Below, one piece after another: positions 6,606 to 29,816 of a stretch of DNA of 37,288 bases. Every line of letters starts with the position of its first letter. Within the stretch, counting starts at the first letter, position 1. The translations under genes and the position numbers were made by a program. Source of the stretch: a virus; UHGV virus genome UHGV-1407012; one strand, 5' to 3'. The notes beneath the pieces are model-generated. The model saw only the letters and a list, made by a program, of their open reading frames with translations. It had not been told where the DNA came from and ran no database searches.

Positions 6606-7337
6606 TTAGTAATCAACTACAGACCACCAGAAAATTCTTCCGATGATCTCAATGTCACTTAGATTCTTTTCTTCTTGTGGGTATTCCAGTGAGTTAAAGC
6701 TTCTAATGCTTACCTTGTCAGGCCCTGTTCGAAAGAGAATCTTAATGCGTTTCCAACCGTTCTCGTTAATGGCGTAAATCTTTCCGTCAACTATTTTCTT
6801 ATCGTTGGTGTTAACAGCAACTGTTGTTCCATCAGGAATGTTTGGCTCCATGCTGTTGCCACGAGCCGGAAAACAAACAACCCCGCTTCCATCACTGTTC
6901 GCGCCAACTCTGCGAAGGGTTGATTTGGAAAAGCGCAACATAAAGCCGTTGTGATCTTCATCAATCACCCGACCATCCCCGCATGCAAACTCAATATCTT
7001 TAAGGTAAGGAATTTCAACTTCATCACCTCTTAAAGGCGTTCCTCCATCCCATGGGTCCAAACATCCCCACGTGCTTTCATGAGGAATAGAAGATTTTGG
7101 ATCATAAGGTTCAACTCCCTCATCACGCATTGGCCCAGTTCCATCGGAAAGCCATTCCGTACGAACTCCAAGCACTTTTGATATTTCAAAAAGTTTGCGC
7201 GTATTGCGTGTTTTTCCAGACGTAAGTTTCCAGACGCTTGGCTGAGACATGCCAACAGCATTGCCAAGAGAAGCCTGAGTAAACCCAGCCTGATCCATCG
7301 CGTATGTAAGCCTTTGAGAAAAAGTATCTAGTTTCAT
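6606..7337 (-). CDS. cI: CI-type prophage repressor (HTH N-domain, LexA-like S24 autopeptidase C-domain)
   Basis: HTH segment QASLGNAVGMSQPSVWKL; C-terminal GNSMEP serine motif and downstream Lys; divergent from cro. Confidence 0.9.
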   Translation of the reverse strand: MKLDTFSQRLTYAMDQAGFTQASLGNAVGMSQPSVWKLTSGKTRNTRKLFEISKVLGVRTEWLSDGTGPMRDEGVEPYDPKSSIPHESTWGCLDPWDGGTPLRGDEVEIPYLKDIEFACGDGRVIDEDHNGFMLRFSKSTLRRVGANSDGSGVVCFPARGNSMEPNIPDGTTVAVNTNDKKIVDGKIYAINENGWKRIKILFRTGPDKVSIRSFNSLEYPQEEKNLSDIEIIGRIFWWSVVDY

Positions 7338-7348
7338 TCGGACAACCT

Positions 7349-7405
7349 ATAGCTACAGCTATTATTAGTCAAATATCTAAAGCTATTTACTTTCTGAATA
7401 GCTTT
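7349..7405. promoter_or_regulatory. OR operator region: 14-bp palindrome ATAGCTacAGCTAT (7349..7362) and AAAGCTAT-N11-ATAGCTTT (7379..7405); includes putative pRM (-35 TTGACT on minus strand)
   Basis: Inverted repeats read directly; arrangement between divergent cI and cro. Confidence 0.45.
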
Positions 7406-7414
7406 GGCTATTAT
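7386..7414 (+). promoter_or_regulatory. pR-like promoter (-35 TTTACT, 17-bp spacer, -10 TATTAT)
   Basis: Positioned about 30 nt upstream of the cro start and overlapped by an operator. Confidence 0.45.
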
Positions 7415-7445
7415 TCTTGTTGTGAATTCAGCAGGAGTTATTTTT

Positions 7446-7676
7446 ATGGTCAACAAGGCTATTAAAGCGGCTATTGACTCAGTAGGAAGTCAGCAAAAGT
7501 TAGCTGATGCCTGCGGTGTTAAGCAGCCGTCTGTATGGGCTTGGTTGCATGGGAAGAAAAGGGTATCCGCTAAAAATGCCAAGCGCATTGAAATGGCTAC
7601 CAATGGAAGCATCCCTGCATACCTGATTCGCCCTGATTTATCCGATTTGTTCCCCAATCCGAACAAAGCAGCTTAA
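7446..7676 (+). CDS. cro: Cro-like repressor (76 aa)
   Basis: ATG 7446 with AGGAG RBS inside track ORF 7404..7676; HTH QQKLADACGVKQPSVWAW. Confidence 0.7.
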   Translation: MVNKAIKAAIDSVGSQQKLADACGVKQPSVWAWLHGKKRVSAKNAKRIEMATNGSIPAYLIRPDLSDLFPNPNKAA

Positions 7677-7795
7677 TAAAGCAAATTTTTATACCGAACG
7701 GCCCGGTATACGGTCGGGTGCCCGGCGTGGTCAAGGATGACTGTCAATGGTGCACGATAAAAACCCAAATTATTTACCTATGGAGATAGTAAGAA

Positions 7796-8092
7796 ATGAC
7801 ACAAGCAAGCTACAGCAAGCCAACACAGCGAGAAATTGATCGCGCTGAAACAGATTTACTCATCAACCTGTCAACGCTTACCCAGCGCGGTCTGGCAAAG
7901 ATGATTGGCTGTCATGAATCGAAGATAAGCAGAACGGACTGGAGATTTATTGCTTCGGTTCTGTGTGCTTTTGGAATGGCATCAGACATCAGTCCGATTA
8001 GCAGGGCTTTTAAGTATGCATTGGATGGAATCACAAAGAAAAAATCCCCGGCCGCCACCGAGGATTTTAAGCAAATTGATATGCAATTCTGA
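7796..8092 (+). CDS. cII: CII-like transcriptional activator
   Basis: C-terminal ...TKKKSPAATEDFKQIDMQF resembles lambda CII ...TNKKRPAATERSEQIQMEF (recalled); HTH KMIGCHESKISR. Confidence 0.85.
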   Translation: MTQASYSKPTQREIDRAETDLLINLSTLTQRGLAKMIGCHESKISRTDWRFIASVLCAFGMASDISPISRAFKYALDGITKKKSPAATEDFKQIDMQF

Positions 8093-8124
8093 GGTCATTA
8101 CTGGATCAATCCACAGGAGTAATT

Positions 8125-8286
8125 ATGACAAAACGTCGTAAGAAATACCAGGAAAAAGAAGAGATTCGACACCCTGATTCACCTGAGGGATTAGTGGTAG
8201 CCGCAGCAAATAACAGGGCTTTCGCAGAGCGCCTTGTTGGTGTTTACAGACTAGCCAAAGCAGGAGTGAAACATGGGCGTCGTTAA
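8125..8286 (+). CDS. Small basic hypothetical protein (53 aa, MTKRRKKYQEKEEIRH...)
   Basis: AGGAG RBS 5 nt upstream of ATG; lies between cII and the replication gene. Confidence 0.4.
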   Translation: MTKRRKKYQEKEEIRHPDSPEGLVVAAANNRAFAERLVGVYRLAKAGVKHGRR

Positions 8287-8335
8287 GTTAGCTGATTACA
8301 GGCATAACCCTGTACAACATCAGGAGGCATCCAGT

Positions 8336-9163
8336 ATGGGGTATGTCTCTATACACCGCCAGTTTATGGACAGCAGGCTCTATAAGGACTCTCAGGCAGT
8401 ACATCTTTGGCTTCACTTAATCCTCAAGGCTAATCACGAATCTACTGTCGTCAATACGGATATCGGGCCGATAACTGTTGATCGCGGTCAGATGATAACT
8501 GGACGCCCGTCGCTGGTCAGAGAAACATTCATCCCCGACAACAAAGTTCGGAGCTTATTACGGACTTTTGAGTCGAAAGGGATGCTTAATATTTGCTCGA
8601 TGGGGAAGAAATTTAGCCTGTTTACAATCGTTAAATATGACGATTTTCAGGCAAAAAATTGTCCAACGGTTGTCCAACGGTTGTCCAACGCAAACACCAG
8701 TAATGGCGCGGCTCTCAGCGGAGATTGTCCAACGGTTGTCCAACGGTTGTCCATAAACAATAATATAAATAATATCTCTAATACTGACGTATTAGAGAGT
8801 GCCACAGCAGACAAAAAGTCTGACAAGAAAAAACCTTCCGTTAGCTGTCAGGATGTTGTCGATGCTTACCACGAAATCCTTCCTGAAGCGCCAAAAATCC
8901 GCGCACTGAATGACAAGCGTAAAAACCAGATCCGAACGTTCTGGCGCAAAGCCGGAGTGATAACCCGCCAGCTTGACGGGCATGGGTTCACGATGCAGGA
9001 CTGGAGAAATTATTTGAGCTACGTAGGCGAAAATTGCCGATGGATGTTCGAAGAGCGTCCAAACCATCAACGCGGAACCGTCTGGCACAAAAAGGGATTT
9101 GATTTCCTGCTTAACGATAATACCTACCTGAAAGTTCGTGAGGGTGAACACGATGACCGATAA
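8336..9163 (+). CDS. Replication initiator (lambda O / P22 gp18 functional analogue) carrying the origin iterons
   Basis: ATG 8336 with AGGAGG RBS (track ORF starts 8273); iterons and AT-rich tract inside the gene; followed by the helicase gene. Confidence 0.75.
   Translation: MGYVSIHRQFMDSRLYKDSQAVHLWLHLILKANHESTVVNTDIGPITVDRGQMITGRPSLVRETFIPDNKVRSLLRTFESKGMLNICSMGKKFSLFTIVKYDDFQAKNCPTVVQRLSNANTSNGAALSGDCPTVVQRLSINNNINNISNTDVLESATADKKSDKKKPSVSCQDVVDAYHEILPEAPKIRALNDKRKNQIRTFWRKAGVITRQLDGHGFTMQDWRNYLSYVGENCRWMFEERPNHQRGTVWHKKGFDFLLNDNTYLKVREGEHDDR
8659..8757. repeat. Origin iterons: six 11-bp TTGTCCAACGG-type direct repeats in two triplets, followed by an AT-rich tract
   Basis: Triplets at 8659..8691 and 8725..8757; AT-rich 8757..8790; encode the repeated peptide CPTVVQRLS. 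Confidence 0.7.
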
Positions 9164-10589
9164 TTTTTATGCGCCGCCCCATAGCATCGAGGCAGAGCAG
9201 GCGGTGATTGGTGGATTGCTTCTGGATGATGACAGCAGTGAGCGCGTCCAGAAAGTTCTGGCGATGCTGAAGCCTGATTCATTTTACAGCCGACCACACA
9301 AAATCATTTTCGAAGAAATAACCAGAATGCACCGGGAGCAAAAGCCAGTAGATGGCCTGACGCTTTTCGATGAACTGGAGCGTAAATCGTTAACGGCGTC
9401 TGTTGGCGGTTTTGCTTATATCGCTGAGATCGCAAAGAACACGCCAAGCGCAGCAAACATCGTTGCCTATGCAATGCAGGTTCGTGAAACCGCAATGGAA
9501 CGCTACGCCATCAACCGCATGACTGAAGCGACGGAATTGCTCTATTCCCGCAATGGAATGACTGCAACGCAGAAGTACGAAGCTATTCAGGCGATTTTCA
9601 CGCAACTGACAGACCATGCAAAAACCGGATCGCGTCGCGGCCTTCGCTCATTTGGTGAGGTCATGGAAGGCTGGGTTAGCGACCTTGAGAAGCGATTTGA
9701 CCCGTCAGGCGAACAACGAGGAATGAGCACAGGGATCCCATCGCTGGACAGGATGCTGTCACCGAAAGGTCTGGTGAAAGGCTCTCTGTTTGTCATTGGC
9801 GCTCGCCCTAAGATGGGGAAAACGACGCTATACAGCCAGATGGCAATCAACTGCGCAGTGCATGAGAAAAAGCCCGCTCTGATGTTCAGCCTTGAAATGC
9901 CAGGTGATCAGATACTGGAAAAACTGGTAGGGCAGAAGTCTGGTGTTAACCCGAATATTTTTTACCTTCCGGCGACAAATGACGCTGATGACGGCTATCA
10001 GGGTGATTACGATGGTGACTTCAACAGGGCGATCGAAACAGCCAATCGCTTGAGTGAAATCGACCTGCTTTACATCGACGACACGCCGGGATTATCTCTG
10101 GCTCAAATCGTCAGCGAAAGCCGTCGAATCAAGCGAGAAAAAGGATGTGTTGGCATGATTCTGGTCGATTACCTGACACTAATGACCGCTGAGAAGGCCG
10201 ATCGCAACGACCTTGCTTACGGCATGATCACCAAAGGACTGAAGAACCTTGCCAAAGAGCTTGATTGCGTTGTTGTGCTTCTGACACAACTTAACCGCGC
10301 ACTGGAAAGCCGAACCAATAAACGCCCGTTACCAAGTGACTCACGAGATACAGGGCAGATTGAACAGGATTGCGATTATTGGGTTGGGATCCATCGGGAA
10401 GGTGCTTTTGATGACAGCGTTCCTCCTGGTGAAACCGAACTAATCCTTCGTCTCAATCGTCATGGCAATACCGGCACGGTGTATTGCATTCAGGCAAATG
10501 GAGCTATTTATGACACAGACCAACAGTCTGCTGAAATGCGCCGCCGTGAACGCGAGGAACCGCAGTCCAAGAAGAAAGGAGGATTCTGA
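9153..10589 (+). CDS. DnaB-type replicative helicase
   Basis: N-terminal IEAEQAVIGGLL motif and Walker A GARPKMGKT; ATG 9153 with GAGGG RBS (track start 9138 is GTG). Confidence 0.9.
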   Translation: MTDNFYAPPHSIEAEQAVIGGLLLDDDSSERVQKVLAMLKPDSFYSRPHKIIFEEITRMHREQKPVDGLTLFDELERKSLTASVGGFAYIAEIAKNTPSAANIVAYAMQVRETAMERYAINRMTEATELLYSRNGMTATQKYEAIQAIFTQLTDHAKTGSRRGLRSFGEVMEGWVSDLEKRFDPSGEQRGMSTGIPSLDRMLSPKGLVKGSLFVIGARPKMGKTTLYSQMAINCAVHEKKPALMFSLEMPGDQILEKLVGQKSGVNPNIFYLPATNDADDGYQGDYDGDFNRAIETANRLSEIDLLYIDDTPGLSLAQIVSESRRIKREKGCVGMILVDYLTLMTAEKADRNDLAYGMITKGLKNLAKELDCVVVLLTQLNRALESRTNKRPLPSDSRDTGQIEQDCDYWVGIHREGAFDDSVPPGETELILRLNRHGNTGTVYCIQANGAIYDTDQQSAEMRRREREEPQSKKKGGF

Positions 10590-27725: not shown

Positions 27726-28418
27726 ATGTTATATGCATTTAAGCTGGGCAGAAAACTGCGCGGCGAGGAACCTTATTGCCCTGAAAAAGGCGGGAAAGGT
27801 GGCAGCTCTGATAAAAGCGCAAAGTATGCAGCAGAAGCTCAGAAGTATGCCGCAGACCTGCAAAATCAGCAGTGGCAGACGATCATGAAAAACCTTGCTC
27901 CGTTCACGCCGCTTGCGGAGCAGTATGTTAACCAGCTTCAGAATCTTTCCAGTTTAGAAGGTCAGGGGCAGGCACTTAATCAGTATTACAACTCTCAGCA
28001 GTATAAAGACCTTGCAGGTCAGGCGCGTTACCAGAGTCTTGCTGCTGCGGAGGCGACGGGGGGACTTGGCTCGACAGCCACAAGCAATCAACTGGCCACG
28101 ATTGCCCCGACTCTCGGTCAGTCGTGGTTGTCGAACCAGATGAGCAACTACAACAATCTGGCAAACGTTGGGCTTGGTGCGCTGCAAGGTCAGGCAAACG
28201 CTGGGCAGACATACGCCAACAACATGAGCAGCATTGCACAGCAAAGCGCATCTCTTGCCGCTGCTAATGCCAACAAACCATCAAGTCTTCAGACAGCAAT
28301 TAGTGGCGGAACGTCCGGTGCGATTGCCGGCGCAGGTCTTGCCAGCCTTTTGGGAACATCAACACCTTGGGGCGCTGGCATTGGTGCTGGTATCGGATTG
28401 CTTGGCTCGTTGTTTTAA
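27726..28418 (+). CDS. Ejection protein (gp7-position homologue)
   Basis: Synteny; Gln/Ala/Ser-rich with Gly-rich hydrophobic C-terminus. Confidence 0.65.
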   Translation: MLYAFKLGRKLRGEEPYCPEKGGKGGSSDKSAKYAAEAQKYAADLQNQQWQTIMKNLAPFTPLAEQYVNQLQNLSSLEGQGQALNQYYNSQQYKDLAGQARYQSLAAAEATGGLGSTATSNQLATIAPTLGQSWLSNQMSNYNNLANVGLGALQGQANAGQTYANNMSSIAQQSASLAAANANKPSSLQTAISGGTSGAIAGAGLASLLGTSTPWGAGIGAGIGLLGSLF

Positions 28419-28427
28419 GGGGTAATC

Positions 28428-29816
28428 ATGGCTACTTGGCAAGGATCAAATGGCGGATTGTTGGCTGGTATCGGTGGCGTCAACTCAAACGCTCCTAGCG
28501 TAAATGACATCGGCAATACGCTTCAGCTCATCAGGCAGAACAATGATATTGAGCGTTCAGGCGCTAACAATGTTGGGCTGACTGCTTTGCAAGGTCTTTC
28601 TGGTATTGCGGGTGTTTTTCAGCAGGAAAAGCAGGCTCAGCGGCAGAAAGAATTTCAGCAGGCATACGCTAATGCCTATTCGTCTGGTGATCGTGGTGCT
28701 TTGCGTCAGTTGGCTACTCAATATCCAGACCAGATTGAATCTGTTCGTAAAGGCATGGGATTCATTGATGAAGACCAGCGCAATTCTATTGGCACCTTAG
28801 CGGCTGGCGCTCGTCTTGCAGCATCGTCTCCAGAAGCAATGCAATCATGGCTGCAAAACAACGCCAAGGAACTGACTCGCGTCGGTGTTGACCCTAATAA
28901 CGTTGCTCAGATGTATCAGCAGAATCCTTCAGGATTTGGTGAGTTTGTTGATCACCTTGGAATGGCTGCTCTTGGTCCAATTGATTACTTCAATGTTCAG
29001 GACAAGATGGCTGGTCGTGAGATTGATCGAGGAAAACTTGCAGAGACAATCCGCAGCAATCAGGCTGGCGAGGCGCTAACAGCACGAGGCCAGAACATCA
29101 CGATGCGCGGTCAGGACTTATCTGCTTCTACTGCGCGACGAGGTCAGGATTTGGCAATGCAGCGAGCGTCAACAAGAGGAATCGCTGGGAATGATGAGCG
29201 TACAGTTCAGTTATCAGATGGCAGAACTGTAACGGTAGGCGGGAAGCTTCATGGCGCTGGGGCTAATGCGTTCTACGAAGGCATCGACAACGAGGGGAAT
29301 ATGGTTCGCGTCCCTGCCAGTTCAATCGCTGCGCCTGCAACATCGTCTGCATCAGCACAAAACTATGCCATGAAGAAGGATATCGACGCGATCGCAAATG
29401 CAGACGCTTCTGCTCTCGATTTCATGACAGGAATGACAGGCGGTGCAGGTAATCCAGCAATTGGTGCTGATGTTCGCAGCCGATTAACGGGAAAAGAGCA
29501 GCGCCAGTTATATAACTCAGCACAACGTATTCAGGGCAGAATGCAGAATCAGGGTGTGGCGGCAGCAAGGGACATGGGTGCCAGTGGTATTAACACCGTT
29601 GCAGAAGCGAAGATGTATTTTCAGGGGATGCCGCAGGTTGACTATTCAAGCCCGGAGGCTATGCAGCAGTCGATTCGTGAAATTCAGGAATACACCAACA
29701 ATTACAACCAACAATATAACGTTAATGTTGGTAAATCTCAGCGTAAGCAATCTCAACCTGCACAGGTATCACAGCCAGCAGCCAGCAGTAACTTTTCTTC
29801 ACTATGGGGTGATTAA
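28428..29816 (+). CDS. Ejection protein (gp20-position homologue)
   Basis: Synteny; 462 aa. Confidence 0.65.

Follow-up and report, generated by a model that had tools for sequence, protein, structure and literature searches.

We assign a probability of roughly 0.85 to the reading that the window, by which we mean the whole 37,288-bp stretch of DNA analyzed here, carries a theta-type replication origin inside the linker-coding part of the initiator gene of a P22-like phage. This sequence-based reading is favored because an O-like initiator gene followed by a phage DnaB helicase gene lies downstream of cI, cro and cII, and because the elements stand in the same order as in the lambda origin, where O-binding iterons are annotated. 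It is further supported by a geometry kept in relatives, by constraint at the DNA level and by covariation in the hairpin, as well as by an iteron core that tracks the initiator N-domain and a partner gene that tracks the C-domain. The origin also falls in a predicted linker (pLDDT below 50), the N-domain is homologous to the SPP1 origin binder G38P, and the annotations of phages Sf6, HK620 and L, together with L/P22 region-swap genetics, point the same way. A preliminary description of this DNA had placed an origin within the initiator gene, and the O-like initiator with its phage DnaB helicase, the conserved array, the co-variation with the N-domain and prior annotation all support that placement.

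The window represents a mosaic P22-like (Lederbergvirus) lambdoid phage. Overall it matches IME10 best, at 97.3% identity over 57% of the first 25 kb, and its replication module is 99.3-99.8% identical to the modules of IME10, HK75 and Sf6 (99.3% for Sf6). The genes in and around the replication module are:

6606-7337, minus strand: cI-type repressor gene, upstream of the initiator gene
7404-7676: Cro/YdaS-type HTH gene, upstream of the initiator gene
7796-8092: cII, upstream of the initiator gene
8125..8286, plus strand: 53-aa open reading frame that overlaps the initiator start (phrog_1331, E 1.4e-37; homologue of Sf6 gp42 and P22 orf48)
8273..9163, plus strand: replication initiator gene, 296 aa, from the list of open reading frames (phrog_345 'replication initiation O-like', matched over its full length, E 4.8e-85)
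9138..10589, plus strand: phage DnaB-family replicative helicase gene (TIGR03600, 583.6 bits against a cutoff of 498.65; Pfam DnaB and DnaB_C)

The initiator is 100% identical to the O proteins of HK75 and IME10, and shares 99.3% of its amino acids with Sf6 gp43 and 82% with L gp18. Among Pfam and NCBIfam families none matches it at cutoff, the sole match being DUF7376, below cutoff. The helicase open reading frame overlaps the 3' end of the initiator gene with no gene between, and its true start is likely the ATG at 9153, matching the Sf6 annotation. Counterparts of the 53-aa open reading frame are annotated in Sf6, HK620 and L.

An AlphaFold2 model of the initiator, built from a shallow alignment of 22 sequences (mean pLDDT 67), contains two confident domains, a winged-helix-like one at residues 24-125 and a second at residues 189-293, while residues 130-188 have a pLDDT below 50. 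The origin, at 8655-8798, encodes residues 128-176, a segment predicted to be a disordered linker joining the two domains. Compared with the PDB by Foldseek, the model gives weak matches (best E 0.033, none at or below 0.001), which are uniformly winged-helix DNA binders; we thus assign a winged-helix fold to the N-domain tentatively. A PDB sequence search with the initiator returned nothing meaningful, and with lambda O BLASTP detects no similarity (E 4.5), the 'O-like' of the PHROG name denoting function. Residues 20-127 align with SPP1 G38P at 28% identity over 111 aa (E 8e-13), and a G38P-type relationship is also recovered by tblastn against the phage collection (E 1e-5). RepA_N-type plasmids carry iterons inside the rep gene. 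Their initiators (RepA of pSK41 and pTZ2162; PDB 4pql and 4pt7) show a weak winged-helix likeness to the N-domain (Foldseek E 0.06), which is an analogy and not membership in that group.

The elements of the origin, all within the initiator gene, are arranged as follows:

8659..8691, plus strand: iteron triplet 1, TTGTCCAACGG, TTGTCCAACGG, TTGTCCAACGC (units 8659-8669, 8670-8680, 8681-8691)
8692..8724, plus strand: spacer of 33 bp, G+C-rich, conserved in length and free in sequence
8725..8757, plus strand: iteron triplet 2, TTGTCCAACGG, TTGTCCAACGG, TTGTCCATAAA (units 8725-8735, 8736-8746, 8747-8757)
8754..8774, no strand: AT tract TAAACAATAATATAAATAATA, with 1 G/C in 21, the presumed DNA unwinding element
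8775..8798, no strand: perfect inverted repeat TCTCTAATAC-tgac-GTATTAGAGA (arms 8775-8784 and 8789-8798)

Reading of positions 8400-9100 and Tandem Repeats Finder both give two tandem arrays of the unit TTGTCCAACGG with an 11-bp period, the program reporting 2.9 copies at 8659-8690 and 2.6 copies at 8725-8753, each with 100% matches. The units are directly repeated, abutting and asymmetric, and the two triplets are offset by 66 bp (6 x 11). The third unit of triplet 1, TTGTCCAACGC, has C as its last base, and the last unit of triplet 2, TTGTCCATAAA, is degenerate (7/11 match) and merges into the AT tract. No further copy of TTGTCCAACGG with up to one mismatch occurs outside 8659-8757 in the 37,288-bp window. 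The 8-mer core TGTCCAAC is found five times (expected 1.05), every copy lying in the array on the plus strand, and 0 of 100 shuffles reach five copies; a search of the 37-kb window with this core found no second array. Folded whole as single-stranded DNA, the array does not rise above shuffles (z -0.98).

The preliminary description had reported six 11-bp iterons in two tandem triplets with a degenerate last copy, an AT-rich stretch after them and a duplicated peptide, CPTVVQRLS, in the initiator. All of these are borne out: the iterons by reading and by Tandem Repeats Finder, the AT-rich stretch by 40-nt windows with a GC fraction of 0.225-0.275 and by the single G/C in 8754-8774, and the peptide by the translation of the 296-aa frame at 8273-9163. 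The span then given, 8655-8790, covers the array; the hairpin went unmentioned, and its right arm extends beyond 8790.

The AT tract has a counterpart in all iteron classes, 13-24 nt long (mostly 21-22) with a GC fraction of 0.05-0.24. We note that 21 nt is short for an unwinding element, a point against the origin reading.

The inverted repeat that follows the tract has 10-bp arms and a 4-nt loop and lies at a fixed 116 nt from the first iteron unit. As single-stranded DNA it folds with -7.5 kcal/mol (z -5.3). In an alignment of 30 distinct sequences, 97% of cells are paired, both sides have changed in nine of the ten stem pairs and one-sided changes number zero. The covariation score is 0.709 compared with 0.164 for shuffles, and slid registers are only 29-48% paired. 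Among relatives the arms measure 9-10 bp and the loop reads TRAM; the distance from the first unit to the start of the hairpin is 116-117 nt for nearly every array listed and 108 or 111 nt for a few Eho59-type loci.

We considered whether the hairpin with its T-rich flank is instead a leftward intrinsic terminator or another RNA-level element, as a scan that gives a terminator-like minus-strand site at the hairpin and the software-predicted minus-strand terminators in the phage L record would have it. We judge this quite improbable. Only three of the ten stem pairs are G-C, and the one terminator-like match equals the level in shuffles (mean 1.0). All changes in the stem are double Watson-Crick changes, with no G-U intermediate in the 300 cells of the 30-sequence alignment, and because such wobble intermediates are missing a DNA palindrome is favored over an RNA helix. 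Moreover, the lambda origin has an equivalent palindrome, an Rfam scan of 7300-9400 gave no match, and the T-run is the conserved AT tract itself.

This putative origin is already known from the Sf6/HK620/L group. For Sf6 (AF547987), a putative rep_origin is recorded at 28385-28480 in gene 43, likened there to the lambda origin and to HK620, and this interval is the counterpart of the array in the window. Gene O of HK620 (NC_002730) and gene 18 of phage L (MW013502) carry a putative rep_origin at the equivalent position, and the L genome paper describes six 11-bp repeats. These putative origins, in genes for O proteins of the HK022/VT2-Sakai type, are the same element as that of the window, which has six imprecise 11-bp direct repeats with the core TGTCCAACGG within an initiator gene orthologous to those for Sf6 gp43 and L gp18, followed by a DnaB-type helicase gene (TIGR03600). 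HK620 shares the layout of the window with units TTACCAGCA, and L differs at the junction base, which is A in L and T in the window, the unit being otherwise as quoted for L. The literature searched, which left the original HK620, Sf6, HK022 and P22 18/12 papers outside, held no binding, footprinting or replication assays for this iteron class and no paper with the exact 11-mer. The published Sf6, HK620 and L annotations do not include the hairpin, the fixed 33-bp spacer or the strict mapping between N-domain and iteron; the incremental points of the present analysis are this spacer, the strict correspondence of N-domain cluster and core, the covarying palindrome, which matches lambda in layout, and variants with one, two or three modules.

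A P22 gene 18 origin was also considered, ST160 and SE1 labeling the homologue Gp18, and was dropped; according to the L genome paper, the true P22 gp18 is of another type, sharing only 25% identity with the L protein, and its four repeats measure about 20 bp each.

The preliminary description had further stated that the arrangement mirrors the origin within the lambda O gene. The likeness holds for layout: like the lambda origin, that of the window lies inside the initiator gene in the inter-domain region, as a direct-repeat array beside an AT-rich tract, and the order of iterons, A/T-rich tract and inverted repeat with a 4-nt loop is the same (12-bp arms in lambda, 10-bp arms in the window). 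It does not extend to homology, given the BLASTP result with lambda O, the other type of iteron and a helicase that is not the lambda P loader. Lambda has four iterons of 18-20 bp with internal dyad symmetry, spaced 20-24 bp, whereas the window has six abutting asymmetric 11-bp units and no set of four dyad-symmetric iterons of about 19 bp. In lambda, O brings in host DnaB by way of lambda P, whereas in the window the gene after the initiator codes for a phage DnaB-family helicase. Both initiators are modular: the N-domain serves the origin and the C-domain the partner. Binding as a dimer in the lambda manner, suggested by the partial dyad GTTG-tc-CAAC, was rejected as a general model; the dyad is absent in the other three iteron classes.

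SPP1 offers a further parallel. G38P has nanomolar affinity for the direct repeats of oriL, an origin located in gene 38 beside an AT-rich unwinding element, and theta replication has been reconstituted on a 356-bp oriL fragment; G38P also binds a second site, oriR, where it is proposed to stall forks (PMC5737612, PMC6316719). SPP1 shares with the window a homologous N-terminal domain, an initiator gene that contains the origin, and a DnaB-family helicase of the phage. The two differ in repeat sequence and layout, and the C-terminal parts of the initiators are unrelated. SPP1 has a separate loader, G39P, encoded by gene 39 between genes 38 and 40, and a second binding region in oriR, whereas the window has neither such a gene nor a second array.

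The behavior of G38P at oriR bears on the possibility that the initiator-bound repeats serve mainly in something other than initiation, be it autoregulation, a roadblock in the pR operon, or fork arrest and a late-replication switch, with the true origin elsewhere. The array does sit in a transcribed gene, and promoter-like matches derived from the iterons occur. This explanation is nevertheless very improbable: with TGTCCAAC confined to this array within the 37-kb window, a second array that might be the real origin is absent, and without exception an AT tract and a palindrome adjoin the array in the order of the lambda origin. Genetics also speak against it: those cited in the L genome paper place the L origin within the 18-12 region. 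The same paper, citing Hilliker (1981), states that the L replication region can replace that of P22 as a whole and not gene by gene.

The preliminary description had proposed comparing the iterons among relatives, and this comparison finds the geometry conserved and the unit sequence co-varying with the initiator N-domain. We collected 329 loci, 272 of them with the N-domain type of the window, and analyzed the unit plan in 266. Graded by tblastn identity, the relatives run from L, SE1 and ST160 (82%) through the VT2-Sakai/HK620 type (66%), Klebsiella ST512 phi13.1 (47%) and CobraSix (42%) to Erwinia Eho59 (41%, N-domain only), and in all of them the element sits at the same place and consists of a triplet of 11-bp units, the 33-bp spacer, a second triplet, an AT tract and a hairpin. 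Across the 266 loci this plan is conserved while the unit sequences vary: 265 have a CCA core in all six units, and the offset between blocks is exactly 66 bp in 268 of the 272 loci. The 68 distinct arrays fall on four cores, TGTCCAAC, TGTCCAGC, GTACCAGC and GTGCCAAC, so that one geometry is kept by four different unit sequences across 41-100% protein identity. Distant N-domains of about 29% identity (loci L270, L289 and L299) are accompanied by the same plan with 12-bp units and a 69-bp offset. Since the offset is 66 bp with 11-bp units and 69 bp with 12-bp units, the 33-bp length of the spacer is the constant.

For the analysis of specificity we used 151 non-redundant loci and clustered N-domains at about 70% identity. 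Iteron divergence correlates with N-domain divergence (Mantel r = 0.79) and continues to do so when C-domain divergence is controlled for (partial r = 0.73), whereas the partial correlation with the C-domain given the N-domain is -0.07. Every one of the seven N-domain clusters goes with a single iteron core; C-cluster 3 is seen with all four cores, and N-cluster 6 with three different C-clusters. Physical linkage on the DNA could account for part of the co-variation between N-domain and iterons, yet the C-domain is equally near the array and shows no association with them. Residues 40, 43, 100 and 112 separate the CCAAC from the CCAGC iteron classes, and residues 100 and 112 fall, in the predicted model, at the end of the putative recognition helix and in the beta-hairpin wing. 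We predict these four residues as candidate specificity determinants.

This one-to-one mapping weighs against binding of the repeats by some other protein, such as host DnaA or the protein encoded by the small upstream open reading frame. The idea draws on TGTCCA, which resembles part of a DnaA box, on a last unit that ends in CCACA in three of the four classes, and on the presence of a small open reading frame upstream of the initiator in many relatives. We consider it highly improbable, as the unit class tracks the N-domain cluster without exception, a host factor would not predict four classes among enterobacterial phages, and Eho59 keeps the array without the small upstream frame.

The C-domain type, in turn, perfectly predicts the downstream gene. 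C-clusters 2-4 are followed by a DnaB-type helicase gene in 143/143 loci. In 8/8 loci of C-cluster 1, whose domain shares 63-67% identity with the C-terminal part of lambda O, the next gene is a lambda P homologue; these are natural chimeras in which the N-domain type and iterons of the window are joined to a lambda-O-type C-domain. Hairpin sequences tend to go with the C-side, and locus L270 has a lambda-type palindrome beside a lambda-type C-domain. The association of N-domain with iterons and the travelling of the hairpin with the C-side therefore place recombination joints between the iterons and the hairpin.

Constraint on the element was measured as the number of polymorphic positions among 70 distinct sequences of the window's own class, after misaligned chimeric loci had been filtered out. 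The iteron cores (unit positions 2-8) are polymorphic at 1 of 42 positions and at 0 of 14 third codon positions, the AT tract at 0 of 21 and the hairpin arms at 0 of 20. Changes are found at 9 of 16 junction bases, at 16 of 33 spacer positions, and at 98 of 308 positions of the N-domain coding sequence (63 of 102 third codon positions). Polymorphism on the C-side is inflated by one divergent sequence, so the N-domain is the safer comparator. A Fisher test of the cores against flanking third codon positions gives p = 1.4e-7. With an 11-nt period the identical core falls in all three reading frames, and the constraint tracks this 11-nt register and not codon phase. The comparisons show a spacer that is constrained in length but not in sequence.

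Variation in copy number is also informative. Protein variants of 274, 296 and 318 aa occur in the database, in steps of exactly one 22-aa (66-bp) module; locus L129, of the Klebsiella type, is a one-module variant, and in P0041 the array is read in another frame, which is then restored. Such copy-number and frame variants show that the encoded peptide is dispensable and that the array recombines. Of the earlier statement that DNA and protein constraints coincide in the repeats, the DNA part stands, in the form of the 11-nt register, and the protein part was overstated, in view of the predicted disordered linker and the variants with one, two or three modules. It is scarcely credible that the repeats arose incidentally, through a protein-level repeat or replication slippage in a tolerant linker, and have no role in cis: the peptide CPTVVQRLS is duplicated and the variation between one, two and three modules implies unequal recombination, but a period of 11 nt is not a multiple of 3 and so yields no peptide repeat within a triplet, the cores are invariant at synonymous positions while junction bases change, also non-synonymously, and four unit sequences share one geometry across 41-100% protein identity in a segment predicted to be disordered.

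Under the origin reading, binding, unwinding, helicase loading and stoichiometry are all inferred, and initiation might proceed as follows. The N-terminal winged-helix-like domain would bind the six 11-bp units, probably in head-to-tail fashion with a single domain on each. The units would lie on roughly one face of the DNA because they share an orientation and are spaced by about one helical turn, and the 33-bp spacer of fixed length would hold the two triplets in register. The resulting nucleoprotein complex may destabilize the adjacent 21-nt AT tract and AT-rich palindrome, after which the C-terminal domain would recruit to the opened DNA the phage's own DnaB-family helicase, which the next gene encodes. 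Once the helicase is loaded, primase and polymerase of the host would take over.

A more elaborate and rather doubtful version of the origin reading treats the element as a two-part device, with a specificity module on the left, a separate palindrome site on the right and the AT tract as a recombination joint. The left part would comprise three units, the 33-bp spacer and three further units with an 11- or 12-bp period, and would co-evolve with the N-domain. The palindrome would be, for example, a helicase entry or loading site, or a signal in the form of a cruciform or single-stranded DNA hairpin; it would travel with the C-domain and partner side and be common to the lambda origin in chimeric phages. 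If this were so, the joint in the AT tract would let phages shuffle the modules for origin specificity and helicase recruitment independently. The strongly covarying palindrome is present also at the lambda origin.

For the window itself these results mainly confirm annotation, fixing the origin, initiator and helicase of a P22-like prophage or phage. The comparison adds four natural specificity classes of one origin architecture, of modest value for phage replication biology. It also bears on whether the initiators of L/ST64T and Sf6, which are 82% identical, share target specificity, as the epsilon34 genome paper had asked. The iteron cores of the two types are identical and the junction base is their sole difference; this common core suggests that the two initiators do share their target specificity.

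Three distant relatives among the collected loci (L270, L289 and L299), whose N-domains are about 29% identical, carry their array at about 1550-1800 of each locus, with units of 12 bp (e.g. CCGATGAACCAT) and a block offset of 69 bp. In all three, the initiator has a lambda-O-type C-domain and is followed downstream by a lambda P homologue, and L270 and L289 also have a lambda-type palindrome. These loci are chimeras that join the origin family of the window to the right half of lambda. Lambda ori has a counterpart of a perfect palindrome with 10-bp arms that we find at 8775-8798 of the window, directly right of the AT tract (8754-8774), and that shows strong covariation among relatives. This palindrome was missing from the preliminary description and extends past the end of the origin element as delimited there (8655-8790).

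The spacer between the iteron triplets of the window (8692-8724) has a motif, CAGTAATG(G/A)CGCGG, in common with the spacers of L270 and L299, where the iterons are unrelated and the N-domains only about 29% identical. Within the window's own class the spacer sequence is freely polymorphic, despite the recurrence of the motif in L270 and L299. Recent recombination may account for this recurrence.

The 66-bp module of iteron triplet plus spacer, present in two copies in the window type, is found in three copies in one natural initiator variant (P0002, 318 aa) and in a single copy in others (P0036/P0040, 274 aa, and L129:1201-2031). In a further variant, P0041 (292 aa, from a single 5.5-kb contig), the whole iteron array is translated in another frame (IVQRLSNGCPTQTPVMARLSAE), with the original frame regained afterwards. 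Deletion of 1 nt from the A-run ahead of the array, together with loss of one 11-nt unit, would fit this pattern, and P0041 may come from a defective prophage or contain a sequencing error.

One small ORF lies at the 5' side of the initiator:

8125-8286: 53-aa ORF (phrog_1331), homologue of Sf6 gp42, HK97 gp53 and P22 orf48

This ORF shares 14 nt with the start of the initiator gene and is kept 5' of window-type initiators in many phages; it is absent upstream of the initiator in Eho59. At the other end (9138-9163), the mechanical ORF of the helicase gene begins with GTG at position 9138. By the annotation of Sf6, the start would be an ATG at 9153 (MTDNFYAPP...), so that the gene overlaps the initiator's end by 11 nt.

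The window is a mosaic. Over its first 25 kb (1-25000), the best-matching phage, IME10, reaches a coverage of only 57%, with 97.3% identity; for Sf6 the coverage is 40%, with 98% identity. The immunity region (cI 6606-7337, cro 7404-7676) is unlike the 434-type operators of Sf6.

The last, degenerate iteron, unit 6, is TTGTCCATAAA in the window. In the three other classes (CobraSix, HK620 and the Klebsiella ST512 class, Kp) and in loci L084-L087 it ends in CCACA (e.g. GTGTCCACAGA), resembling a DnaA-box core; host DnaA could be involved. Sigma-70-like promoter matches (9/12) also arise from the iterons, at 8736-8764 (+), 8753-8724 (-) and 8687-8658 (-), with four such matches observed in the region versus 1.4 expected from shuffles. 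They are probably a side effect of the similarity of TTGTCC/TGGACA to TTGACA.
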